Positions 47,380-63,600 of a DNA stretch of 64,000 nucleotides are shown here, piece by piece (position 1 is the first letter of the stretch; each line of letters opens with the position of its first letter). Source of the DNA: Botryllus schlosseri (taxonomy: Eukaryota); NCBI GenBank assembly GCA_051294905.1, contig CM119372.1:17920001-17984000 (forward strand), in the 5' to 3' direction. Below the pieces are notes generated by a model. The model did not search any database and was not told the DNA's origin. It saw nothing but the letters and a program-made list of their open reading frames with translations. The position numbers and the translations under genes were made by a program.

Positions 47380-48997
47380 GTAGTAGGCCATTATTAGCTG
47401 CAGGCATTCATAGGCCCGATAAGTAGTCTAATTGTGACCATTGTGGTGTTACGTTGCGTGCAGTGACGTATACGGAGGTGAGGTTGGGGTTCGAGATCCA
47501 ATTATCTATCTAATATGTGTGATGTCATTTGTAATTTAGCAATTGGTATCGTGTTGTTGCGTTTCCGATAAACAATACGATGACACTTTCCAAGGTGAAG
47601 CCTCGCATTTCTGAATGGGAACAGCAGTCACAGTCACACTGATTTGCATAAATAGTCCATCCATTAAAACGTTAAACATTAGTAGTAATATAGATGTGCG
47701 GAATCCCCCCATTCGCGATTTATAAAGAACAAACAAACATTATCAATATAAAAGATACTGAAAGAATTAGCTCATTTTCAATTTTGCAGCAATACTTTTA
47801 TGACCTTGTGTGCGGCAATAAAAAAAGGGGGAATAATTAACGATAGAGAGAAAACGAACAAAGAATCTGGATTGACCTTTGTACTCAGACTGGAGTACTT
47901 CTACTTGTACTTTTCCGCTCCTGATTCTACCTAGCCTGACCTCTGGACACGAGACTTGTGTATTATTTATTATATTTTCCCTCGAATAACAATGGATTGA
48001 CTTTTAATTTCAATGGTATGCACGCCGACGATACGCTCGGCTGGGCAAAGCGACGTCCACGGCCTGTGTCATACTGGACTCGTAACAACCTCGCTCGACC
48101 TCTGGTCAAGGACATGAAATTACAGCTGACTCCGGTCATACGCGACGGGGCTTGGTAATAGTTGCCTGACGACATATCGTCCTGACCTATCGTTTTGTGG
48201 TCCAATTTCGTGACGTGTCTTGGGAATAATTCCCCGTCAAACCCCCTGGCTGACTTGTCGTCCCGTGGTTGACTCGATTTCATGTACGGTGGGTCATAAT
48301 TACCGGTCGTGACGTCAGTATAGTTTCTTCTGATCCATGAGATCCTGGTGCGTGTTTTAGGTATCCATACGTTCGGCTATGTAAAGTGACGCTTGTGGTC
48401 TGTGTCTTGTGTACTGTTGTACTTGAACCCTTTTTTGCTTTGTTATCGACCCAGACAGTAACGAGAAACGATCTGTTACGATTATAAATATGTATACCAT
48501 TTCGAGTCATATCGAGAATGAGAATGAATGTCGTAGTAGAAATGTTTATTAGGCGACCCGACATAGATTAACTTAAATAAATTAACATTATAAATACAAT
48601 AAGTAATTGAGCAAATAACTGATTCTCAATTTTGCTCGCATCAACATGTTAACCCCCCGGTATTACGTACCTAGTAATCGGTGCAAGCAACAAATGTGTC
48701 TGTTCCATACATATACCTCGTTCTAGCGTATTCATAAGGACAGACAGTCCCGAGCAAAAAAATGTATTTATGATGGGTTCTTTCTACTGCTTCACGGTTG
48801 GTCAAGCGTAATCATCCCGGTGTCTGCAAATGATATTCAATTTACCACGGGATATTAATTTTGTATGCTGTACAGTGTACATGATATACAACTTGAATCG
48901 CTCTGTTGGCGAACTCATGCTTTGCCCGTCTGTAACATACACAATTACACATATCGATCACGAGCTCACCACGCACTTTTCGTTCGAGGGCGACTCA

Positions 48998-49630
48998 TTT
49001 CGCTATAGGCAATCAGTTGTGTTCGCGTGTACCGTACTATATCCTCAACACTTGTTATGCCAACACCTCCAAGCATATTTACAATATCATGCTAAGGAAC
49101 TATTGCTTCGGCAGCCACGCACTATCGCTTGAAGTCGACAAATTTCGCTACAGACAGTCAGTTGTGTTCACGTATGTGTCGTAAATATATCCTCAACACA
49201 TGCTATGCCAATACCACCAAGCATATTTGCATCATACTTAGGGTTCTGGTCAGGCTGATTTAAATCATCACGTGTCGACAATCGATCGAAGCCCGTCAAC
49301 TGGTATTTTGAAAGCTCCCGGTATGGTGTATTATTGTGTATGGATTGTTGCGGTATTAGAATTGTGGTTACGGCTCGTTGGCGGTGCGAGGATCAGGTTT
49401 ATAGTATACTATAACTACTTAGCTCGGATATTATACGACGCGCTGCTATCGTTGCTTTGTCCAAGACCGAATTCACGATAATCAATCTCGCTGTCGAAAA
49501 CGACATGCGGCCGCGTAGACTGCATAGCGCCATTTTGTTTTGTGATCCATCCTGCTGTGCCGAGGATCGAAACATATCCTCAACACATGTTATGCCAACA
49601 CCTCCAAGCATATTTGCAGCATCATACTAC
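48998..49630 (+). repeat. Three copies of a ~50-bp motif ATATCCTCAACACATGTTATGCCAACACCTCCAAGCATATTT (~49039, ~49187, ~49574); the first two lie in a ~148-bp tandem unit
   Basis: Directly visible; a weaker fourth copy lies in the palindrome spacer at ~55492. Confidence 0.85.
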
Positions 49631-50452
49631 GGATATATTGACTCGGCAGAGTGTTACCGCCAGAGAATTGCTGTGTCACGCCTTCGGGCCTTGCATTTTC
49701 CGCTCGGTAACTGCGAGTACGATGCTATTTCAATTGTCCACGAAACGAATCGGGGTAGCTCGTTTCATTCGAAATCGGAAACCACTGCGACTATAGGATT
49801 GCAAAATCAAAGTCCAAAAAATCCGACTGGCACGTAAAGTACTGGTTTCTCCATATATTAGGCTGGGTAAAATGTAACATAAATCCAACTCTCAAAGACA
49901 CTGCTGTAAGGGGAGTGTCGTTGTACATTCATTTGCGTACAGCGAAACTTTGTATGCGGTGGTGCAATAATGAGGATGAATTGTGCCAGATCACGTGAGG
50001 CAATCTAGCCTTCTTTCGGTGAGGTGTAAAGATGAGCGGGGAGATTTCGAAATCTGACTCCACCCCGACTCGGGTTGCTAAATCAAAGTCCAAAAAATCC
50101 GGCTGGCTCGTAAAGTCCTGTTATTTCCACATGTTGTGAGGGTAAAATACAGCATAAATCCGACTCTCAAGGCCATTTGGCCGCATCCAGACTGGCTTCG
50201 CTGAAAACTGATGAAATCTGCGCCGGGTCCGGAGATGTTTCGTGACCTCCTCCGTCCAGACAAGATTGTTCTGCTGTAATATAGGTGTCGTTGTATAATA
50301 ATTTACGTACAAGGAGACTTGGTATCGACCCTTTGGCGGAATTCTGTTTGGTTCGTCTGTACAGGTGTTATTAGTGCGATCAGATTTGGCACCTCAAGGA
50401 GTATATTGGTAAAAATCACACAACGATGACAATAACTTTACCGGTCAACATG

Positions 50453-53400
50453 CGGTCAACGGTCAACGATGCGGTGTGATGTACGTAAATCAGCTGTGAT
50501 CAATCGAGCGTGACACAATCGCTGTCAGTCATCAATATGCGACTTGACAAAACTCGCGTTTTCGGGTTGACAGCAACACAGTGCGATATATTTGATGCCC
50601 CCGTCGACCCTCCTATTTTAATGGGGTTACCATGCGGCCTCATTTAGGGGAGCATATGTCCTCCATTTCCCAGATATGTCACCCAATTCACCTAAATGTA
50701 CTCTCTTTCTGTCAGTTTGTCCTCCTTGTTAGCTCAACATTTCAAAAAAAACACCACGAGTAACGCAAAATGTGGGCCTAGATTACGAAAAGTCGGGTAT
50801 TTACGTAGCCAAATCGGAAAAATGACCCTATGATGGTATTGTGCAGGCTATTACGTGGATACGTGGGCGTGTGTAAACATGTGAATAGTAAAAGCGCCCC
50901 AAACTACCGTTACATGAAAAAAGATCGAGCGCACTCGACCATGACGGGGTATACCCACCTTAGTACAGCCAAATGATCCCATGTCGTACCGGGAATAGCC
51001 GAGGTGGTGGTACATCATTCTCACAAATTGTACTTTGGAACGCGTGTGAAATCGACATCGTCCGCTACTCGACTGACGCAAGTCGCCACCGCAGTCCCAC
51101 TCTGTGTATACACAATGTGCTGAGCACTGCAGATCCAGACGAGACTACGCATTCTGGCGAGGTTATCGAGATAGCTGGAGCGATTTACAACACATGCTAC
51201 ATTTACTTCAAAACGGAAAGACAAAATATAGCTTTGGAGTACTCAAGTAGTTTTTAAGAAATATCGGTATCGTGAAATCGCCTTCTATCCTAATTATAAA
51301 AGAGTAGGTCCCCATAAAACTGTCGAGCGCAAGCACGTTGGTAACTGTGATAGTAGACAAAACTGACTCGAGTACCTCAGAAATAGTGACTGTATTTCGT
51401 TGCTGGCCACGCGCCTGCTTATTCACACCGACTGACTCGCGTAGTAAGCCACTGCGCCCCGTCATCTTCTTATTGCTCAAATAATATTACAATGAATATA
51501 CACGAAATTCATTCTAATTTATCGGTAGTGTTATCAGCACAAAAGACACAGTTACACAAGTCTCGCAAAAGGTGTCGATACACTACAATCGTTTTATTTA
51601 ATTCATAGATCGATCGCACGAGTGACGTTTCCGCAGATCAATTTTTGGCGTTTGATCAACTCTTGCCTGGTTTCTAATCACAGGACGATTGAGATTCGGG
51701 TGTGTCTTTTCGATACGTTGCGCAAACTCGATACCTTTCATTCGGATTACGTATTCGCACTGCGGAAACCATTTTGCATGCTCTGTCCAAACCTCGTCTC
51801 CCCGGTCCCAACGAAGCCCGCCGCCACAGTAAAAACATTTGGTTCTGTCCGAATCAATGTAGTAAAACCCCGCTTTTGCTAACTGTCCAACACTAGCCTT
51901 AATTTTATTCGGTTCCCAGCCCTTGTCGAACGTTGCGATTCTTTTTGACAACGACGACATGAGAGGGTTCACGGGGTTAAGACAAGGAAATAGTTGCTCA
52001 AGACATCGCTTTTCGTCCTCGGAGGGTTCATGTGGTTCTTGTAGATGTAGAGTGAGACGTCGTATTTTGTCGCCGAGCAACTTATCCAAATTGTTTCGTT
52101 CGTGCTCGGTTAGCGCCACATTCCCCGAATCGTCGCCACGTGCGAAACAACAACGCGGGTGATACATCAAGTGTATTTCAGATACATCGTCTGTAGGCCT
52201 CCAATTGCGGAGAACGCCGGAGCAGTTGAAGCACTGCGTTCTGTCCAGGTCACCGAGGTAGAAAAAACCTTGTTTTGCCAACTCGCCGACCGCCCGTGGT
52301 ATGGGATAGCTGGGCCATTTCTCAAAGGTTTCGCGACGCTTCGACTCCTTTCGCAAGTCGAGATTCCTAACCCGATACTCGTGCTCTTGATCAACGATAT
52401 TCGCAAAGTTGATGTTGGCGTCTCCAACGGCTTTACACTGTCTCAATAAACTTTTGAAATTCGATTTCACAATAGGTATGTTCAACGCGTCTCGTACACA
52501 ATTAGCGTCATGACGCCGTGCACTCGACCCGGTCCATCTTTCGAGGTACACACTGCATCCAAAGCATTTGATTTTGTCTTCAAATCCTAGCCAGTAGTAT
52601 CCTTCAGACGCTAAATCGGTGCGTGTCGCGTATGATACTTTAGAGAATTTGGCGAACGTGGCGAGTCTGTACAATTCAGTGCGGTGTGAACCGGAAGCGA
52701 TATACACTCGTTTCTGTCCGGGCGGATCAGAGTATCTCTCCATTGACGTTATGCCAAGCTCTTTCATAAACATGGAGTACTAAGACAGAGCTTTTTGTGT
52801 CTAAACCTGTACCATAGCTCACACATATATATTCCTAGTTTATCCTTGCGAGCTCTATCGATTACTGGTTGGTTGTACTTTTATGTGTGATTGACAACCG
52901 TTAGCTGTCGCTATTGCACCATTTATATATGTGTTATACCAGGAGCGGTCAACTTCTGCAGCCCGCGGGGCGTGTATAGCATAATTAGGTACTCGGTGGT
53001 ACGAATTGCTGAATCGATACATTATTCGACCACCGATCAGCATATGCCAGGAATAAATCGTATTCAATCAATGTATTTTAACAACAGCAATGTCAATGCA
53101 AAGCCGTATCTCGCCGATATTAACGAGGACAAAGTGGATTTGAGAACAGTATTTTTATACAGGCACCGCCATGTCTGCTTCTCTCTCACGGTGCAATACT
53201 TAAATAAGATTTCATAGTGGTCTATAAGCCCGATACCCTAAATCGACAGAGATATCAATTCATTAAAGTTGTTTTCTAACGACATTACAGAGAACAACGC
53301 GTACCAGTAAACACAAACCGAATTGTCCCACTGTTGCGTCAATTCACCGCCGACTCGGTATGAGACACTCTCGACCAGCGAATGTACATTAGGCAACCGA

Positions 53401-54483
53401 AACAGGTGACCTTGCGAAGGGGGGTGTTTTCGATAACACCGATACGGCAACTTAATTCTTTCTACTGACAATGTGATGGAGAGCGGCTTAATTCATCAGA
53501 CAAAGACTGGAGGCAACAATAACTAGCAAACACAAATCTAATGGCCACACCGACATTAACAGGTATTCGATAGACCCGAAAATACCAACGTCACCCAACT
53601 GCTGTAATGTCACGGGTACGATGCGGGGTACGAAGCATTTTGAACGGTGTTGCTCAGTTGCGGTTCTCGGCCTTCCAAGACCTCTGTTAGCATCAGTCTA
53701 TCTCACTGTTTGGAGTGCCAATGCCAAACGTCGTAATAGTGATCACTCGGCCATGTGTAGAATATAGAAATTGACGCCTGGCCTATTTGCAAGACCTCAT
53801 GGCTTTGGCAAACTTACTAAAGCGGAAATTCACAAAGTCACTTGCGTACGTGCTTTCATGCCTTTGAATGTTTGTTATCATCGAGTCTGGTCATAAATAG
53901 ACATGGGGACAAATTTGATGCGTTCAGCACAATACACGTTTACCACATCTCATTCCGGACCGTAACCGATCGTTTACCGCACCCTCTATATGGCAAACGT
54001 CGCTTTTGCTCATAGGTAAGCCGATGATCTGTGAAAACACATGCGCTAACGTGCCATTTCGTTATTCCTTCAACGTCACATGACCGCCTATGAAGGCTTT
54101 TTGGGTGCCCACCTATACAGTGTTGAAACGTGATCCATAGGGACCCCACTGCGTGCTATACGCCTAAATAAATATGTTTACTCGAGTATACACCTGGTGT
54201 GGAGCAGTGGAGTGGATGCAGAAAGTAAATTAGACAACGCAAACCAGTTGACAACGTAGATTAATATACGGGGGTTGATAAATTTTGTCAAGTGACTTTT
54301 GAATGGATGTTATTTGTTTGTTGTTTGATGGATAAGATTGTATTCATTCATAAACTACTAATATACTTCTTGTGGTGCTAAACCTGATTATACAGATGAA
54401 TCAGACAGTATTCCGCCAATTGGGACTAGTTGCCCGTCGTCGTGATTGATCTCCTAGTTCGCGGTGGTAACAAAAAAAAAATG
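50453..54483 (-). repeat. Left arm of the 4031-bp inverted repeat
   Basis: Reverse complement of 56008-60038. All paired ORF translations are identical. First mismatches seen at 50452/60039 and 54484/56007. Confidence 0.95.
51598..52773 (-). CDS. Inhibitor of apoptosis (IAP/BIRC-like), 3 BIR domains, no RING, intronless, 391 aa; copy 1
   Basis: BIR motifs RLATF...CFGC...H...C, RRETFEKWP...LAKQGFFYLGDLDRTQCFNC-x16-H-x6-C and RIATF...LAKAGFYY...CFYCGGGL...EHAKWFPQC; AATAAA overlaps the stop codon. Confidence 0.93.
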   Translation of the reverse strand: MFMKELGITSMERYSDPPGQKRVYIASGSHRTELYRLATFAKFSKVSYATRTDLASEGYYWLGFEDKIKCFGCSVYLERWTGSSARRHDANCVRDALNIPIVKSNFKSLLRQCKAVGDANINFANIVDQEHEYRVRNLDLRKESKRRETFEKWPSYPIPRAVGELAKQGFFYLGDLDRTQCFNCSGVLRNWRPTDDVSEIHLMYHPRCCFARGDDSGNVALTEHERNNLDKLLGDKIRRLTLHLQEPHEPSEDEKRCLEQLFPCLNPVNPLMSSLSKRIATFDKGWEPNKIKASVGQLAKAGFYYIDSDRTKCFYCGGGLRWDRGDEVWTEHAKWFPQCEYVIRMKGIEFAQRIEKTHPNLNRPVIRNQARVDQTPKIDLRKRHSCDRSMN

Positions 54484-54924
54484 ATCGCGTAAAATTACTA
54501 ATAAGCTATGCCCCGAGTTTCCGGGTCGCCGCCATACCCCGTAACTATGTGTTTGGAGGGGTGGACGCGCGTTATCGGGTGTACCGAAAGGCTGTTTGCA
54601 CTGCGAATTGGAGTAAATCCAGACTGGTACGCAAAGTCCTGTTATTCCCCATGTTGTGAGGACAAAATCTAGTATATGTCTGACTCTCAAAGATACGTCG
54701 CCGTATCCAGTCCCGACTTCACTCAAAACCGATGAAATTCGGGGGTCCGGAACCGATTCGTGACCACCTCCGTTCAGACAAAATGGTTCTGCTGTCATTA
54801 CACGATATGCGGGGTTTCGTTGCATATTCATTTGCGTACAGTGAAACTTTGTATCGAACCATTGTCGGAATTCTGTTTGATTTGTCTGTACATATGTTGT
54901 TATTGCAGTAGGGTTTAGCACCAC
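54454..54924 (-). pseudogene. Best-preserved copy of an unknown ORF repeated in disrupted form at ~50078-50395 (-) and ~60098-60413 (+)
   Basis: TNQTEFRQ..DTK..CT, TAE..CL.GGGHE..PDP.ISSV.S and TG.G...LRV blocks are recoverable in the other two copies, across stops and frameshifts. Confidence 0.4.
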
Positions 54925-56007
54925 AGGAAGTATATTGGCAAAATCTTATCCATCACACACCGATAACATCTTAACTGTCGGCAAACTCAACGGTCATCAC
55001 TCGTCGTTCGAATGCTTGTAATATCGGTGTGATGTACACAAACCAGTGATTAATCGAGTGTGACACAAACGGTGTCAGTCGACACTCTCCTGTTTGACTA
55101 ACTCGCATATTCGAGCGGGTTGACAGCAATGCGATACATTTGATGTTCACATCGATCCTTATATTTATAGGGCTACCAAAGTCCTCCTCCTTTTCCCAAA
55201 TATGTACAGCCTTCACCCAAATGTCTTCCTTTTTTGTAATTTTGTCCTTATTTTCAGCTTAAAATAACAGAAAACACCACGAATAACGCGAAATGTCGGT
55301 CTGATCGATTTCGGTGAGTGACCTTTCATTTAGCTAACTCGCACAACACAAGTAATTGACGGGTATTTCGGTAGTCAAGTCAGAAGAAATGACATTGTTT
55401 TCTAGTCAATCTAATGAAATTAGCGGTATAAATATAAAAATACGTCTTCCCCAATCGTAACTTGCAACCTGTGAAAAACGTGTACCGCAAAATATCCTCA
55501 TCACCCCCCCAACAAAATATAGTTGCGAAAAATATCGTACTATGGACGTATTGACTCGGCGGAGTGCTACCGTGAGAGAAATGCTGTTTGACCCCCTCGA
55601 CCTAGCCTTGGATTTACCGTTCGAAAAACTCCACCGGAAGAAGCTGTGATCGAGTGTCGCAATCAATGTCAGTCACGCTCCATCAATCTGTTGCTTTGAC
55701 AAAACTTGTACGTATACGCCAGATATGAGTATTGATTAGGATTTAGAAAAAAACGTATTTGTGAAAATTTGCTGGATTAGGATTGCATTAGATTTTGGGA
55801 TTGATTTACTATATCGTACATGCTACAACTGCCTAGCCCCGTCGTGACGAAATAGGATTAATCAGTTGTGGAACGATAAGTTAGGGCTAACCGCTTATAC
55901 CCCTAGTTTATTCTTGAAAGCTCTATAGATTACTGGTTAGCTGTATTTTTGTGGACGACTGACAACAGTTAGTTGTCGCTATTGTACGATTTACACTTTG
56001 TGTTATA

Positions 56008-59000
56008 CATTTTTTTTTTGTTACCACCGCGAACTAGGAGATCAATCACGACGACGGGCAACTAGTCCCAATTGGCGGAATACTGTCTGATTCATCTGTA
56101 TAATCAGGTTTAGCACCACAAGAAGTATATTAGTAGTTTATGAATGAATACAATCTTATCCATCAAACAACAAACAAATAACATCCATTCAAAAGTCACT
56201 TGACAAAATTTATCAACCCCCGTATATTAATCTACGTTGTCAACTGGTTTGCGTTGTCTAATTTACTTTCTGCATCCACTCCACTGCTCCACACCAGGTG
56301 TATACTCGAGTAAACATATTTATTTAGGCGTATAGCACGCAGTGGGGTCCCTATGGATCACGTTTCAACACTGTATAGGTGGGCACCCAAAAAGCCTTCA
56401 TAGGCGGTCATGTGACGTTGAAGGAATAACGAAATGGCACGTTAGCGCATGTGTTTTCACAGATCATCGGCTTACCTATGAGCAAAAGCGACGTTTGCCA
56501 TATAGAGGGTGCGGTAAACGATCGGTTACGGTCCGGAATGAGATGTGGTAAACGTGTATTGTGCTGAACGCATCAAATTTGTCCCCATGTCTATTTATGA
56601 CCAGACTCGATGATAACAAACATTCAAAGGCATGAAAGCACGTACGCAAGTGACTTTGTGAATTTCCGCTTTAGTAAGTTTGCCAAAGCCATGAGGTCTT
56701 GCAAATAGGCCAGGCGTCAATTTCTATATTCTACACATGGCCGAGTGATCACTATTACGACGTTTGGCATTGGCACTCCAAACAGTGAGATAGACTGATG
56801 CTAACAGAGGTCTTGGAAGGCCGAGAACCGCAACTGAGCAACACCGTTCAAAATGCTTCGTACCCCGCATCGTACCCGTGACATTACAGCAGTTGGGTGA
56901 CGTTGGTATTTTCGGGTCTATCGAATACCTGTTAATGTCGGTGTGGCCATTAGATTTGTGTTTGCTAGTTATTGTTGCCTCCAGTCTTTGTCTGATGAAT
57001 TAAGCCGCTCTCCATCACATTGTCAGTAGAAAGAATTAAGTTGCCGTATCGGTGTTATCGAAAACACCCCCCTTCGCAAGGTCACCTGTTTCGGTTGCCT
57101 AATGTACATTCGCTGGTCGAGAGTGTCTCATACCGAGTCGGCGGTGAATTGACGCAACAGTGGGACAATTCGGTTTGTGTTTACTGGTACGCGTTGTTCT
57201 CTGTAATGTCGTTAGAAAACAACTTTAATGAATTGATATCTCTGTCGATTTAGGGTATCGGGCTTATAGACCACTATGAAATCTTATTTAAGTATTGCAC
57301 CGTGAGAGAGAAGCAGACATGGCGGTGCCTGTATAAAAATACTGTTCTCAAATCCACTTTGTCCTCGTTAATATCGGCGAGATACGGCTTTGCATTGACA
57401 TTGCTGTTGTTAAAATACATTGATTGAATACGATTTATTCCTGGCATATGCTGATCGGTGGTCGAATAATGTATCGATTCAGCAATTCGTACCACCGAGT
57501 ACCTAATTATGCTATACACGCCCCGCGGGCTGCAGAAGTTGACCGCTCCTGGTATAACACATATATAAATGGTGCAATAGCGACAGCTAACGGTTGTCAA
57601 TCACACATAAAAGTACAACCAACCAGTAATCGATAGAGCTCGCAAGGATAAACTAGGAATATATATGTGTGAGCTATGGTACAGGTTTAGACACAAAAAG
57701 CTCTGTCTTAGTACTCCATGTTTATGAAAGAGCTTGGCATAACGTCAATGGAGAGATACTCTGATCCGCCCGGACAGAAACGAGTGTATATCGCTTCCGG
57801 TTCACACCGCACTGAATTGTACAGACTCGCCACGTTCGCCAAATTCTCTAAAGTATCATACGCGACACGCACCGATTTAGCGTCTGAAGGATACTACTGG
57901 CTAGGATTTGAAGACAAAATCAAATGCTTTGGATGCAGTGTGTACCTCGAAAGATGGACCGGGTCGAGTGCACGGCGTCATGACGCTAATTGTGTACGAG
58001 ACGCGTTGAACATACCTATTGTGAAATCGAATTTCAAAAGTTTATTGAGACAGTGTAAAGCCGTTGGAGACGCCAACATCAACTTTGCGAATATCGTTGA
58101 TCAAGAGCACGAGTATCGGGTTAGGAATCTCGACTTGCGAAAGGAGTCGAAGCGTCGCGAAACCTTTGAGAAATGGCCCAGCTATCCCATACCACGGGCG
58201 GTCGGCGAGTTGGCAAAACAAGGTTTTTTCTACCTCGGTGACCTGGACAGAACGCAGTGCTTCAACTGCTCCGGCGTTCTCCGCAATTGGAGGCCTACAG
58301 ACGATGTATCTGAAATACACTTGATGTATCACCCGCGTTGTTGTTTCGCACGTGGCGACGATTCGGGGAATGTGGCGCTAACCGAGCACGAACGAAACAA
58401 TTTGGATAAGTTGCTCGGCGACAAAATACGACGTCTCACTCTACATCTACAAGAACCACATGAACCCTCCGAGGACGAAAAGCGATGTCTTGAGCAACTA
58501 TTTCCTTGTCTTAACCCCGTGAACCCTCTCATGTCGTCGTTGTCAAAAAGAATCGCAACGTTCGACAAGGGCTGGGAACCGAATAAAATTAAGGCTAGTG
58601 TTGGACAGTTAGCAAAAGCGGGGTTTTACTACATTGATTCGGACAGAACCAAATGTTTTTACTGTGGCGGCGGGCTTCGTTGGGACCGGGGAGACGAGGT
58701 TTGGACAGAGCATGCAAAATGGTTTCCGCAGTGCGAATACGTAATCCGAATGAAAGGTATCGAGTTTGCGCAACGTATCGAAAAGACACACCCGAATCTC
58801 AATCGTCCTGTGATTAGAAACCAGGCAAGAGTTGATCAAACGCCAAAAATTGATCTGCGGAAACGTCACTCGTGCGATCGATCTATGAATTAAATAAAAC
58901 GATTGTAGTGTATCGACACCTTTTGCGAGACTTGTGTAACTGTGTCTTTTGTGCTGATAACACTACCGATAAATTAGAATGAATTTCGTGTATATTCATT

Positions 59001-60038
59001 GTAATATTATTTGAGCAATAAGAAGATGACGGGGCGCAGTGGCTTACTACGCGAGTCAGTCGGTGTGAATAAGCAGGCGCGTGGCCAGCAACGAAATACA
59101 GTCACTATTTCTGAGGTACTCGAGTCAGTTTTGTCTACTATCACAGTTACCAACGTGCTTGCGCTCGACAGTTTTATGGGGACCTACTCTTTTATAATTA
59201 GGATAGAAGGCGATTTCACGATACCGATATTTCTTAAAAACTACTTGAGTACTCCAAAGCTATATTTTGTCTTTCCGTTTTGAAGTAAATGTAGCATGTG
59301 TTGTAAATCGCTCCAGCTATCTCGATAACCTCGCCAGAATGCGTAGTCTCGTCTGGATCTGCAGTGCTCAGCACATTGTGTATACACAGAGTGGGACTGC
59401 GGTGGCGACTTGCGTCAGTCGAGTAGCGGACGATGTCGATTTCACACGCGTTCCAAAGTACAATTTGTGAGAATGATGTACCACCACCTCGGCTATTCCC
59501 GGTACGACATGGGATCATTTGGCTGTACTAAGGTGGGTATACCCCGTCATGGTCGAGTGCGCTCGATCTTTTTTCATGTAACGGTAGTTTGGGGCGCTTT
59601 TACTATTCACATGTTTACACACGCCCACGTATCCACGTAATAGCCTGCACAATACCATCATAGGGTCATTTTTCCGATTTGGCTACGTAAATACCCGACT
59701 TTTCGTAATCTAGGCCCACATTTTGCGTTACTCGTGGTGTTTTTTTTGAAATGTTGAGCTAACAAGGAGGACAAACTGACAGAAAGAGAGTACATTTAGG
59801 TGAATTGGGTGACATATCTGGGAAATGGAGGACATATGCTCCCCTAAATGAGGCCGCATGGTAACCCCATTAAAATAGGAGGGTCGACGGGGGCATCAAA
59901 TATATCGCACTGTGTTGCTGTCAACCCGAAAACGCGAGTTTTGTCAAGTCGCATATTGATGACTGACAGCGATTGTGTCACGCTCGATTGATCACAGCTG
60001 ATTTACGTACATCACACCGCATCGTTGACCGTTGACCG
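56008..60038 (+). repeat. Right arm of the 4031-bp inverted repeat
   Basis: Reverse complement of 50453-54483. Confidence 0.95.
57718..58893 (+). CDS. Inhibitor of apoptosis (IAP/BIRC-like), 3 BIR domains, no RING, intronless, 391 aa; copy 2 (identical protein)
   Basis: Same translation as 51598-52773. TATATAAA at ~57562 upstream; AATAAA at 58893-58898. Confidence 0.93.
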   Translation: MFMKELGITSMERYSDPPGQKRVYIASGSHRTELYRLATFAKFSKVSYATRTDLASEGYYWLGFEDKIKCFGCSVYLERWTGSSARRHDANCVRDALNIPIVKSNFKSLLRQCKAVGDANINFANIVDQEHEYRVRNLDLRKESKRRETFEKWPSYPIPRAVGELAKQGFFYLGDLDRTQCFNCSGVLRNWRPTDDVSEIHLMYHPRCCFARGDDSGNVALTEHERNNLDKLLGDKIRRLTLHLQEPHEPSEDEKRCLEQLFPCLNPVNPLMSSLSKRIATFDKGWEPNKIKASVGQLAKAGFYYIDSDRTKCFYCGGGLRWDRGDEVWTEHAKWFPQCEYVIRMKGIEFAQRIEKTHPNLNRPVIRNQARVDQTPKIDLRKRHSCDRSMN

Positions 60039-60514
60039 TATGTTGACCGATAAAGTTATTGTCATCGTGATACGATTTTTATCAATATACTCCTTGAGGT
60101 GCCAAATCTGATCGCACTAATAACACCTGTATAGACGAATCAAACAGAATTCCGCCAAAGGGGCGATACCAAGTCTCTTTGTACGTGAATTATTATACAA
60201 CGACACCTATATTACAGCAGAACAATCTTGTCTGGACGGAGGAGGTCACGAAACATCTCCGGACCCGGCACAGATTTCATCAGTTTTCAGCAAAGCCAGA
60301 CTGGATGCGGCCAAATGGCCTTGAGAGTCGGATTTATGCTGTATTTTGCCCTCGCAACATGTGAAAATAACAGGACTTTACGCGCTAGCCGGATTTTTGG
60401 GACTTTGAATTGGCAACCCGAGTATAATCTGTCACAATTCATTCCCATTATTGCACCACCGAGCGCGTATCAGTCAAATAAGGTCAGCCCATATTGCAGT
60501 TCAAGCATGTGCAG

Positions 60515-60680
60515 TAATGATTACGTCATTATGATTGCGTAGTTGATTACTCTAGTTATTACGAGAGCGGCTTTGCTTGGTTCCGGTTCAGTAACGCTGA
60601 GATATGATTACGTCATTATTGCGTAAGTTGATCGCCTTATTTGTTATTGTAGTTGAACCAAGTGCAAGGCAATATATAAC
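60515..60680 (+). promoter_or_regulatory. Putative promoter of the death-domain gene: duplicated CRE/ATF-like sites plus TATA box
   Basis: ATGATTACGTCATTA occurs twice (TTACGTCA at 60521 and 60608) within a ~30-bp direct repeat; TATATAA at 60673-60679, ~50 bp before the ATG. Confidence 0.45.
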
Positions 60681-60727
60681 GTGTAATATTTATTACATGA
60701 TTATTCGCTGTACACTGTAGATCGAAT

Positions 60728-61009
60728 ATGTCCAAGATTACTGCTAGTGATATATACGTCACATTGGATCGGATTGACCCGATGAACTGGTATAGGTTTG
60801 CACGTGAAAAACTTGAGCTATCTGACAATGAAATTGCCGAATGCCAATACATGGATTGCTATAACTTGACTGAGCAACGATATCAAATGATACAGTTATG
60901 GATTCGTAAAAATGGTCGTTACGCTACGATGAACAAACTTAAAGAATTAGTTTACAGTTGTCTGTACCAGATACCTTCGAATAGCAATTCAACTGTTCTG
61001 TTGGACTGA
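60728..61009 (+). CDS. Stand-alone death domain protein, 93 aa, intronless
   Basis: NWYRFAREKLELSDNEIAECQYMDCYNLTEQRYQMIQLWIRKNGRYATMNKLKELV fits the death-domain pattern W..LAR.L.LS..EI......L.EQ.YQML..W....G..AT...L...L (FADD/TNFR1-like); AATAAA at 61252. Confidence 0.8.
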   Translation: MSKITASDIYVTLDRIDPMNWYRFAREKLELSDNEIAECQYMDCYNLTEQRYQMIQLWIRKNGRYATMNKLKELVYSCLYQIPSNSNSTVLLD

Positions 61010-61275
61010 GAGACATAGCGTACTAAGAGGAGAATAATATTGTGTAGACTGGAGAATAATGAAGATGCTCTCAGAAGACTTCAATATCGGTTTATACGCA
61101 ATCATATGCTCATGTATGCGAAACTGGTATTGCTTTCACATCGCAAATCAAAAAAAGGATTCTGATATCAAGAAAGGATGCCAAGCTCTGAAAGAAGCTC
61201 TACACCTTGTTCTGGACGATTAGTTAATGTGCTTGCCCCGTTATTACTTCAAATAAACTGAACATGTGTATTTAA

Positions 61276-61825
61276 TTGTGTAAAATGTGTTATTCGCACG
61301 TGGCGACGATTCCCACAGATCATTTCTCCTCACTATTTAAGTCAACAAAAAAGCAAAAGGCGGACAAGTACGACAGTATGAGACAGACCACAAGCATCAC
61401 TTTACACAGCCGGACGTATGGACACCTAAAACACGCACCAGAATCTAACGGATCAGGAGAAAACTATACTGACGTCACGACCGGTAATTATTCCTATGAC
61501 CCACCGTACACGAAATTGAATCAACCGCGGAACGACGAGTCAACCAGTTTGACGGGTTATTGCTCCCAAGCCACGAAATTGTACCACGAGACGACGGGTC
61601 AGGGCAGGCAACTATTATCAAGCCCCGTCCAGGATCTCATGGATCAGAAGAAAACTATACTGACGTCACGACCGGCAATTATTCCTATGACCTCCCCGTA
61701 CACGAAATTGAATCAAACGCGGAGCGAAAAGTCATCCGGGGGATTTGACGGGCAATTATTCCCAAGACTCGTCCTCGGATTGGCCACGGACCGATAGGTC
61801 GGGACAGGTGGCTATTATCAAGCCC
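61276..61825 (+). pseudogene. Tyrosine-motif-rich ORF built from a ~190-bp tandem duplication, frameshifted; inverted paralog at 48140-48564 (-)
   Basis: Unit encodes GS(H/N)GS(G/E)ENYTDVTTGNYSYD..PYTKLNQ; two units at ~61438 and ~61629; a single frameshifted unit in the left arm. Confidence 0.5.
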
Positions 61826-63417
61826 AATTAAAAAATACTAAATATACAAGTCTCGTGTTCAGAGGTCAAGCGAGGTAAAATCAGGAGGGGGAAAGTACAA
61901 GTAGAATGACTCAAGTCTCATGTCTGAGTACAAAGGTCAATCCAGATTCTTTGTTCGTTTTCTCTCTATCGTTAATTATTCCCCCTTTTTTGATTGCCGC
62001 TATGCAGTCTACGCGGCCGCGTGTCTATTTTCGAAAGCGAAATCGATTATCGTAAATTAGGTCTTGGACAAAGCAACGATAGCAGCGCGTCGTATAATAC
62101 CCGAGCTAGGGAGTTATTATAAACCTGATCCTCGCACCGCCAACGAGCCGTAACCACAATTCTAATACCGCAACAATCCATACACAATTATACCGGGAGC
62201 TTTCAAAATACCAGTTGACGGGCTTCGAGCGATTGTCGACACGTGATCCGTGCTCTGTGATCCGTAACAATATCTAGAGCTTTATTTACATGGTTATTCT
62301 TTCTGGTTCTCGAGAACTCGAGTTGACGCGTATATTTATAGACGTAACAGATCATTTCCACCGTTATAATTTCAGTCAATAAGCAGAGTACGATTCCAGT
62401 ATGACACAGACCGTAGGCGTCGCTTTGCCCAACCAAACGCATCGACACCTAAAACGCGCACCAGGATATCCCGTGTCAGGAGAAAACTCTGCGTCAGACA
62501 ATCATTACCAATCCACATCGTACTATAAACTATTAACACTCGGATGGATACGCTTCGTTTTTTTTTGTAAGTAAGTGAGAATCCACTTTGGCGTATCATC
62601 TGGCCGGACGCGCGTTGACAATCCACCTAAAACACGCACCGGGATCTCACATACGGATCCGAAGGAACAAATACTATACTATTGTTGTTCATAGGGGGAA
62701 ATATAACAATACTATACTGTTGTTGTTCGGGGGAAATATAAAAATTACTAGTAAGTACATACCATCGAAATTAAAAGCCAATCCATTGTTATTCGAGGGA
62801 AAATATAATAAATAATACACAAGTCTCGTGTCCAGAGGTCAGGCGAGGTAGAATCAGGAGTGGAAAAGTACAAGTAGAATGACTCCAGTTTGATGTCTGA
62901 GTACAAAGGTCAATCCAGATTCTTTGTTCGTTTTCTCTCTAATTATTCCCCTTTTTTAATTGCCGCACAGTCAGAAGGGAAATCCCCTCGAGTATTGCTG
63001 CAGAATTGAGAATGAGCTAATTCTTTCACTATCTTTTATATTCATAATTCTTGTTTGTTTAAGTTAAATCGTGTTTTGGCACATTCCGCCCATTTATCAA
63101 ACTACTAACATTAAACGGAGCACCGCCGACGGCGATTAACATTTAACCTTAAAATCCCAGAACATCGGCGACACCTTCGATATTATTATCTTCAGCAGCT
63201 GAAATGTCTCATGTCCATGACATCCACATTAGTTGAGTTGAAAAAATTATGAGGGCCCAATACCAGCCTGTGGGGTTGCATGACAATGTGCTGTTTCCAC
63301 CCTGGATAGGAGGGGGCACAAGAAACATTTATTGACAGCTCAAGGGGTACGAGCGTACCGTACTCTTTAAGGGTGTATTACTTTGGTAGGATGTACTGGG
63401 GTGTACCAAATATCAGT

Positions 63418-63600
63418 AGGGGTCTCAGCTTTCCCGTGGCCACTTACTGGCCACAGATTTTTTTGTGGCCGGCCACGAATATCTGGTGGCCGGCCATGAA
63501 AATGCGTTGTCTCGTGGCCGGCCACAGTGAATTTCATGGCCGGCCATAAGAATTCATCATGGCCGGCCACGAGTTCATGGCCAGTTCGTGATTTTGGCAC
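63418..63600. repeat. TGGCCGGCCA(C/T) repeat array, probably the subterminal region of a DNA transposon
   Basis: About 5 full and several partial GTGGCCGGCCAC motifs after TAGGGGTCTCA. Confidence 0.55.

Follow-up and report, generated by a model that had tools for sequence, protein, structure and literature searches.

A probable palindromic satellite of Maverick/Polinton elements carrying putative anti-death genes in the genome of the tunicate Botryllus schlosseri

The stretch of DNA analysed in this work (the window, 64,000 nucleotides of Botryllus schlosseri, C2:17920001-17984000 of an assembly of 495.5 Mb) contains towards its right side a large palindromic element, whose structure was read from the assembled sequence and whose parts are listed in Table 1. 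A repeat search of the window delimited two inverted arms of 4,416 nt each, 99% complementary and separated by a spacer of 1,524 nt, in agreement with the original prediction, made from the letters alone, of a palindromic cassette with arms of 4 kb. The arms differ at 23 positions, every one of them inside 50079-50452, and their inner 4,031 nt are 100% identical. A weaker inverted homology (80-100%) does reach positions 47670 and 63117, the limits initially given to the cassette, although the true ends of the element lie slightly inside, at 47681 and 63106; the left and right outer arms of this copy match each other in patches only, again at 80-100% identity. When the window was compared with itself by BLAST, no cross match appeared between the element and the remainder of the window. 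As had been anticipated, the arms carry two identical, divergently oriented and intronless genes for an inhibitor of apoptosis (IAP) protein of 391 amino acids (aa) with three BIR domains, whereas the gene for a protein formed by a death domain (DD) only, in a single exon, is found further out on the right side. The IAP gene occurs twice because the whole element is a palindrome. A search of the open reading frames (ORFs) between 47681 and 63106 with Pfam found no polymerase, integrase, ATPase, protease, penton or capsid gene; the prediction had likewise recognised no transposase, integrase or capsid gene. No intact gene was recognised in the left outer arm.

Table 1. Features of the palindromic element in the window, followed by the related copies compared with it (DD, death domain; IAP, inhibitor of apoptosis; ORF, open reading frame; TSD, target-site duplication)
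Feature	Position	Strand	Remarks
Whole mobile element	47681..63106		15,426 bp; ends 5'-AGTAGT...ACTACT-3'; similarity of other copies stops exactly there
Left TSD copy AACATT	47675..47680		6 bp; identical to 63107-63112
Right TSD copy AACATT	63107..63112		6 bp; identical to 47675-47680
Left outer arm, IAP-type satellite subfamily	47681..50067		82-94% identity to outer arms of C12 and C4b
Left inner arm of palindrome	50068..54483		50453-54483 identical to its mirror
IAP gene, left copy	51598..52773	-	391 aa, 3 BIR, no RING, intronless
Central spacer (palindrome loop)	54484..56007		unique; family spacers 87-98% identical
Right inner arm of palindrome	56008..60423		inverted partner of 50068..54483
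TATA-like AATATATAT	57658..57666	+	putative; ~52-60 nt upstream of IAP ATG
IAP gene, right copy	57718..58893	+	identical to left copy; AATAAA 58893-58898 overlaps the stop codon
Right end grafted from DD-type satellite (recombinant segment)	60039..63106		0 differences vs C4a, ~60000 to 63106
TATA-like ATATATAA	60672-60679	+	putative; before DD ORF
DD-only ORF, 93 aa	60728..61009	+	Pfam Death PF00531, 7.4e-11
170-aa ORF over subterminal direct repeats	61285..61797	+	no Pfam match; frame not conserved in C4b
Right terminal 200 bp	62907..63106		87-100% match to termini of five 16.4-kb polymerase-ORF elements
C4a, DD-type palindrome			14,936 bp; arms 6,638 nt, 99.80% identical
C4b, IAP-type palindrome			14,437 bp; arms 6,454 nt, 99.97% identical
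C11, DD-type palindrome			14,639 bp; arms 6,489 nt, 99.69% identical
C12, IAP-type palindrome			~16.2 kb; arms 7,346 nt, 99.82% identical
C7, short member			4,767 bp; arms 1,582 nt, 99.4% identical

The genome-wide copy search that had been proposed as a check showed the IAP gene, the outer arm and the spacer to be highly repeated on many contigs, mostly as inverted pairs. Here and below, match counts refer to the scored part of each candidate list. IAP DNA gave at least 40 scored matches at 95-100% identity (40 of 210 candidates), the right outer arm at least 64 (40 of 661 candidates scored) and the spacer at least 52 (40 of 549). In every full copy compared, the similarity to the window ends at the same two points, and every element examined starts with AGTAGT and finishes with ACTACT. 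Seven of the eight elements examined at both ends are flanked by a perfect 6-bp TSD, which differs from one locus to another (AACATT in the window, GTTGGT in C4a, AGTACG in C4b, TATGTG in C11, GATAGT in C12, CGCGCA in C14 and TTCATT in C5b); in the eighth, C7, both copies agree at 5 of 6 positions. In this line, a search with the right terminal 200 bp gave at least 40 matches (40 of 369 candidates scored), arranged as (-,+) pairs 4.7-16.4 kb apart, and a 19-nt pattern of the terminus was found 59 times in forward and 75 times in reverse orientation, compared with 10 and 1 for the reversed control. About 36 (+,-) pairs can be formed among the 100 places listed for this pattern, with 8 enclosing a polymerase match, 13 an IAP match and 5 a DD match.

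In typical members of this family the arms extend from the termini up to a loop, ~30 nt to 1.5 kb long, and show 99.7-99.97% identity, whereas the identity between different copies is 82-98% only. A second family of IAP-bearing palindromes is represented by C4:18241053-18255845, an element of 14,793 bp that is 99.82% symmetric around a loop of ~30 nt, with AGTAGT ends and a perfect TSD (ATTACT; the ninth element so examined). Its twin genes code for 404-aa proteins with three BIR domains, 68% identical to the window IAP, and converge near the centre; about 30 matches to this second IAP occur genome-wide in (+,-) pairs among the matches listed. IAP-bearing palindromes are therefore found in two separate palindromic families. 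At C3:30407631-30447218, a subterminal module (positions 893-1577 of the right outer arm query) occurs three times in the same orientation with a spacing of 12,914 bp and then once inverted, in what looks like a tandem array of satellites.

The ends of these palindromes led to a probable source of the missing replication and integration functions. In a passage of Barreat and Katzourakis (2021; PMC8097293), Mavericks are described as having 5'-(AGT)2//(ACT)2-3' ends and a perfect 6-bp TSD, which are the features observed here. Moreover, the right terminal 200 bp of the window element are 100% identical to the terminus of C14, a non-palindromic element of 16,419 bp with terminal inverted repeats (TIRs) of ~366 nt (94.8% identity), and 87-99% identical to the termini of four other 16.4-kb elements with an ORF for a family-B polymerase (PolB); each of these five 16.4-kb terminus pairs encloses the polymerase ORF. 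The first 418 bp of C14 show 92% identity to the right end of the window element, and ~1 kb of subterminal sequence is common to both. The largest C14 ORF (1,381 aa) has homologues (34% identity over 92%, E 6e-232) that carry PF03175, the protein-primed family-B polymerase, in three of the four tested, and nothing meaningful was obtained for it among PDB sequences. A second C14 ORF, of 365 aa, matches the rve integrase (PF00665, 6e-8), a third, of 219 aa, gives a weak match to P-loop NTPases of the Walker-type ATPase kind, and a fourth, of 504 aa, falls nearest to clusters of capsids like the double jelly-roll (DJR) ones by language-model features (0.92-0.93), which is taken as a lead only. 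The polymerase protein is matched at least 35 times in this genome (34 of 364 candidates scored); among the matches listed, 15 are near full length at 95-100% identity, 9 of these 15 without in-frame stop, and further clades appear at ~63-66% and 38-39% identity. A genome scan with PF00665 was discarded as a way of locating more partners, as its 150 or more matches were dominated by retroelements. The viral core genes, whose presence in the neighbourhood had been proposed as a check, are absent from the window element itself; polymerase and integrase are found in its partner C14.

Two other elements connect the palindromes with this group. In the chimera C5b (C5:1057222-1072800), a single pair of ends and a single TSD enclose an IAP arm with part of the spacer and, joined to them, the polymerase half of a C14-type element. 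The polymerase frame of C5b has three stops, and its chimeric structure indicates that exchanges between elements recur. In addition, an autonomous-type Polinton of another clade (C2:14480041-14497846, 17.8 kb), the ends of which gave no resolvable TSD, encodes Bcl-2 (PF00452, 1e-20), a ubiquitin-conjugating E2 (2e-48), an integrase with rve and chromodomain (2e-13), an A32-like ATPase (Pox_A32, 1.4e-9), a polymerase-like ORF of 1,310 aa, a tRNA-Leu(UAA) and a DD-only ORF. Altogether, the (AGT)2 ends, the 6-bp TSD and the termini common to polymerase/integrase elements identify the window element as a non-autonomous satellite of Mavericks/Polintons. We consider it very probable that 47681-63106 is one insertion of a palindromic, non-autonomous snap-back satellite of a Maverick/Polinton (adintovirus-like) family, with a putative anti-death cargo. 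By its anatomy, the element can be classed as a derivative of an abundant family with many young copies. The original suggestion that the genes travel as cargo, be it of an endogenous virus or of a foldback-like element, was in essence right, the mobile element being a palindromic derivative of Mavericks/Polintons.

The window copy has a composite history. Over its right side (~60000-63106) it aligns with 0 differences to the right arm of C4a, a DD-type palindrome of another chromosome, while inward of 60000 the comparison gives 3-58 differences per 100 nt. The outer 2.68 kb of the right arm of the window element recur at 100% identity in a copy on C5. The crossover is the mirror of position 50452, where the arms of the window element turn identical, and in this copy the perfect symmetry is limited to the inner 2 x 4,031 nt. 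The DD-type palindromes C4a and C11 lack the IAP, and the IAP-type ones C12 and C4b lack the DD, whereas a C3 element combines DD genes with a 186-bp IAP fragment; full-length IAPs and the DD ORF occur together in the window copy only, among the matches listed (106 of 519 IAP and 150 of 156 DD candidates scored). The absence of differences over the right 3.07 kb with a DD-type satellite reveals the window copy as a very recent recombinant of IAP-type and DD-type satellites. Such a recombination may have resulted from a template switch, prior to integration, between satellites that were replicating together, or from a later ectopic conversion, and the intact TSD would fit both. The claim of a coherent anti-apoptotic module, for which a repeated association of the genes elsewhere had been proposed as the check, finds no support in that form: the pairing was not repeated among the matches listed and the DD end is a recombinant graft. 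Each gene alone is a recurrent cargo of the Maverick family, and for each of them the anti-apoptotic reading can be maintained as a plausible one.

Regarding the IAP protein, the Pfam search recognises BIR in three stretches (E 6.9e-47), whereas no family of RING domains is listed at E<=0.1. The protein ends ~50 residues after BIR3, and sister copies have 392-395 aa. Zinc-ligand motifs of the type C-x2-C...H...C occupy residues 70-92, 181-208 and 313-339, with a shortened spacing in the first one, and the best PDB matches are NAIP, BIR3 of cIAP1, and BIR3 and BIR2 of XIAP. A TTAG 8 nt before the ATG is a possible splice acceptor. At the protein level there are at least 107 matches in the genome, almost always arranged as inverted pairs (106 of 519 candidates scored). 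The best homologues outside this genome are tunicate IAPs bearing a RING (PF13920), with 43% identity over 95% coverage for Styela clava. A host parent of the gene was searched for in the genome and not found; a candidate at C5:9.515 Mb turned out to be a disrupted gene belonging to the second family of satellite IAPs. BIR+RING proteins annotated from Endozoicomonas ascidiicola and from an uncultured Endozoicomonas, both of them bacteria associated with ascidians, rank among the better matches to the IAP, with 31-35% identity over 90-93% coverage, and may derive from a host-to-symbiont transfer or from contamination.

The DD-only protein finds its PDB matches in the death domains of TNFR1 (1.5e-5) and RIPK1 (0.004) and in FADD (0.04), and has at least 146 matches in the genome (150 of 156 candidates scored). 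A stretch of ~0.72 kb around the DD ORF of the 17.8-kb Polinton of the other clade is 88.7% identical at the DNA level to the DD region of the window. The closest relatives outside the elements, among the matches listed, form a cluster at C8:2.35-2.40 Mb with five matches in long open frames (521-569 aa), one of which (C8:2401000-2403400) has a death domain at its N-terminus and, after it, a caspase domain (Peptidase_C14, 2.4e-28). Such DD-caspases are likely to represent the model or the source of the DD-only gene, as judged by their similarity. The identity of 61% over 74 aa (E 3e-29) with the N-terminus, or prodomain, of this host DD-caspase suggests that the DD-only protein could act as a decoy of these enzymes; when a complex between both death domains was predicted, the score was 0.00, which offers no evidence either way.

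From these features a mode of propagation can be proposed. Autonomous elements would replicate and integrate the satellites in trans, recognising the common ends. The palindromes would originate when the protein-primed polymerase, while engaged on one end of a parent element, switches back onto its own product, which would generate a molecule with one end, the accessory-gene region, a loop and then the same sequence inverted. The same snap-back, or the repair of a folded-back displaced strand, may keep the arms near-identical while copies diverge. On the side of the cargo, the IAP would most likely bind caspases or IAP antagonists and the DD-only protein would most likely be a decoy blocking the recruitment of DD-caspases, so that together they might keep the cell alive during the replication of Maverick DNA. 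Most satellites measure 13.4-16.2 kb and their helpers 16.4-17.8 kb, which hints at a possible packaging constraint. Going one step further, and only tentatively, as we would sooner doubt than accept it, the snap-back palindromes could be self-perpetuating, helper-dependent satellites with arms regenerated in each round, packageable and endowed with a double dose of anti-death genes, acting as endogenous defective-interfering genomes that favour the helper and that multiply and shuffle apoptosis genes through the genome of a marine invertebrate.

Several observations weigh against a Maverick satellite with a useful cargo. Both the dependence in trans and the snap-back origin are deductions from anatomy, and the window element is not a full palindrome, hence atypical of its family. 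The 1,381-aa ORF of C14 has itself no Pfam match and owes its identity as a polymerase to its homologues only; a scan of the genome with the PF03175 profile gave 0 matches, an uninformative result given that the control was also 0 of 14 genomes; and the capsid and protease of the partner are suggested at most, no protease having been identified among the partner ORFs. As to expression, three raw RNA runs aligned to 54484-63106 at >=97% identity provided 24 reads out of 12.9 million records (X19), 12 out of 6.9 million (X22) and 79 out of 10.0 million (X23), which lie only partly on the stretch in 24 of 24, 12 of 12 and 74 of 79 cases, respectively, and which are marked as deriving from other copies by their differences or by a continuation that diverges at 58822. 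With a depth of 0 to ~3 over the IAP body, the window copy is silent or nearly so in the three runs, and the family is at most weakly transcribed. Both window IAPs have, moreover, an 8-bp deletion relative to sister copies that leaves the last 21 residues, after BIR3, frameshifted, and an in-frame stop is present in 17 of the first 54 full-length IAP rows (>=91% identity), the other 37 being free of it. The negligible expression, the stops, the frameshifted tails and the one-off association of IAP and DD would all be expected if the element is as described and its IAP and DD genes are passive, decaying passengers, of service neither to the element nor to the host. We hold this to be unlikely, although it deserves serious attention. 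The dN/dS of the IAP (Nei-Gojobori, codons 1-368) ranges from 0.10 to 0.60 with a mean of 0.33 for 7 elements, in 21 pairs that are non-independent and with values below 1 that could also reflect use by the host, and the dN/dS of the DD between the window and the other-clade Polinton copy is 0.26 (9 synonymous and 11 non-synonymous differences). In the comparison with C12, the coding segment of the IAP is 95.4% identical and the adjacent arm DNA 86-89%, and the DD frame is open in 78 of the 87 rows at >=82% identity. The presence of IAPs in two palindromic families that are 68% identical in this protein, and the TATA-like and poly(A)-like signals at both genes, also speak against mere passengers. 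The pattern of selection on the IAP suggests that the gene may have mattered to the lineage that spread.

The remaining explanations concern the nature of the palindrome itself. A foldback-type transposon of some other superfamily, mobilised by an unrelated transposase and with ends that are merely Maverick-like, would account for an element without any Maverick gene, and long inverted arms are typical of foldback elements. We see this as highly improbable in view of the terminal 200 bp and first 418 bp matching a polymerase/integrase element at 100% and 92%, of the ~1 kb of common subterminal sequence, of an end motif and 6-bp TSD that are Maverick features, and of the joining of an IAP arm to a polymerase half within one TSD in C5b. 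The prediction had also contemplated a host palindromic gene array, that is, a host IAP locus duplicated in place in inverted orientation and maintained for gene dosage, which would agree with the identical inner arms, the intact IAP genes and the tunicate IAPs as best outside matches. The same structure and ends recur with different TSDs on many chromosomes, and the genes lack introns as well as the RING present in their tunicate homologues; a host array is therefore wrong for this locus, and we concede it next to no chance. A false palindrome produced during assembly from chimeric long reads deserves no more credit, even if missed adapters can make palindromes: the element lies inside a contig of 40.6 Mb between unique flanks with a matching TSD on both sides, the same architecture is repeated with its own TSDs at no fewer than six other loci, and the two outer arms differ here, where an artefactual fold-back would give no difference. 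The snap-back satellite of Mavericks/Polintons is the explanation that we retain.

The central spacer is probably non-coding; a 125-aa ORF at 54454-54831(-) was rejected as a gene, as it is absent in C4b and C3 and has no Pfam match. Scans of 47-64 kb for tRNAs and with Rfam found no tRNA and no credible Rfam match in the element. The sole Rfam match (E 0.097), hvt-mir-H at 63505-63579, lies outside it and scores 24.7 bits against a gathering score of 96, most likely a chance similarity; a 23-nt tandem repeat is located at 63515-63570, just beyond the right end of the element, and the same 47-64 kb contain two short tandem arrays only, one of them outside the element. The tyrosine-motif repeats of the original prediction correspond to real direct repeats of DNA, at 61374-61825 and 62397-62941, with sub-blocks spaced 191, 192 and 200 nt. 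A repeated tyrosine-motif protein is nevertheless doubtful, since this spacing breaks the frame, just one of the blocks keeps it, C4b reads that block in another frame and no Pfam match was obtained. The region of the 170-aa ORF is probably non-coding subterminal repeat DNA. A contig of run X1 joins 61629 to 62814 with 9 foreign letters at the joint, skipping 1,184 nt between direct repeats of ~1 kb, and probably comes from a deleted sister copy. A 510-bp repeat is found at ~65241-65750 (window numbering continued), ~2.1 kb past the right end of the element, and a second time, inverted and with 97% identity, at a distance of ~1.6-2.1 kb from the right end of C4a, outside that copy. Both insertions are thus accompanied by a further dispersed repeat.

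As a consequence of these results, what appeared to be a palindrome of host immune genes becomes a datable transposon insertion. The Mavericks of this tunicate and their satellites carry a set of cell-death regulators that includes the IAP, the DD-only mimic of a caspase prodomain, Bcl-2 and E2. If this cargo is active, Mavericks would use the anti-apoptotic strategy of large DNA viruses, which would support a viral lifestyle for them. In the palindromic satellites, the snap-back defective genomes of a protein-primed replicon would have left a natural record, fixed in the germline. Mobile satellites also offer a concrete route for the multiplication of IAP-like genes in the genomes of marine invertebrates, and a caution for annotation, as more than 100 IAP ORFs of this genome are transposon cargo.

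Among known systems, the closest are the Maverick/Polinton elements, reportedly the subject of work by Kapitonov and Jurka in 2006. The window element resembles them in its (AGT)2//(ACT)2 ends, its 6-bp TSD and its size of ~15 kb, as far as the consulted part of the Maverick literature describes these features, and in termini common to elements of the same genome that encode protein-primed PolB and rve integrase. It differs in that polymerase, integrase, ATPase, protease and capsid are lacking, and in that typical members of its family are formed almost completely by two inverted arms of 6-7 kb, where Mavericks have TIRs of a few hundred bp. In the main texts of the literature searched, we found no description of palindromic or non-autonomous Polinton derivatives, tunicate Polintons included, and no mention of a death domain in connection with Mavericks.

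A second parallel comes from defective viral genomes. Incomplete adenovirus genomes carry long inverted repetitions, and Daniell and Mullenbach are said to have dealt with them in 1978. Snap-back defective viral genomes are presented in an excerpt of PMC13506859 as highly symmetric palindromes. The satellites would share with these genomes, to the extent that the excerpt covers them, a palindrome in which one end of the genome is joined to its own inverted copy, a length that in most copies is near that of the helper and, presumably, the dependence on the protein-primed machinery of the helper. They are, however, integrated in the germline with TSDs, in dozens of copies with subfamilies and intact cargo genes. 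Foldback transposons such as Drosophila FB and Galileo have TSDs of 7-9 bp and arms of short tandem sub-repeats. With them, the satellites have in common the very long inverted arms, a short middle, the non-autonomous condition and a proneness to recombination, whereas here the TSD is of 6 bp, the ends have the Maverick motif, a helper is identified and the arms are unique, gene-bearing sequence.

Anti-death genes have their own precedents on virus-like DNA. Bcl2 and IAP homologues of adintoviruses were published by Starrett et al. (2021; PMC8502044), in the part of the article at hand (its Supplementary Figs S1 and S2 may be pertinent to the claim on the IAP), and a figure legend of a leafhopper adintovirus preprint (10.64898/2026.07.28.741253) is relevant to IAP/Bcl-2 homologues. 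To call the cassette an undescribed system, as in the original prediction, was hence too strong in the light of what these portions report. The likeness, within the same portions, lies in intronless accessory BIR and Bcl-2 genes on virus-like DNA with a presumed death-blocking role. The window IAP differs in its three BIR domains without RING, in its two copies, in its location on a satellite that would depend on a helper, and in having its nearest outside relative in tunicates, at 43% identity; the C-terminal RING E3 domain of XIAP, cIAP and baculoviral-type IAPs was not recognised in it at E<=0.1. Prodomain-only decoys of caspases are also known, as viral FLIPs consist of death-effector domains (DED) only, and ICEBERG and COP of CARD only. 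The DD-only protein is likewise small and equivalent to the recruitment domain of an initiator caspase alone, with 61% identity to the DD of a host DD-caspase, but the fold of the element protein is a DD instead of a DED or CARD, and its inhibitory role is putative. What is new here are the satellites with intact pairs of IAP genes, the likeness of the DD-only protein to the DD-caspases of the host and the recombinant origin of the window copy.

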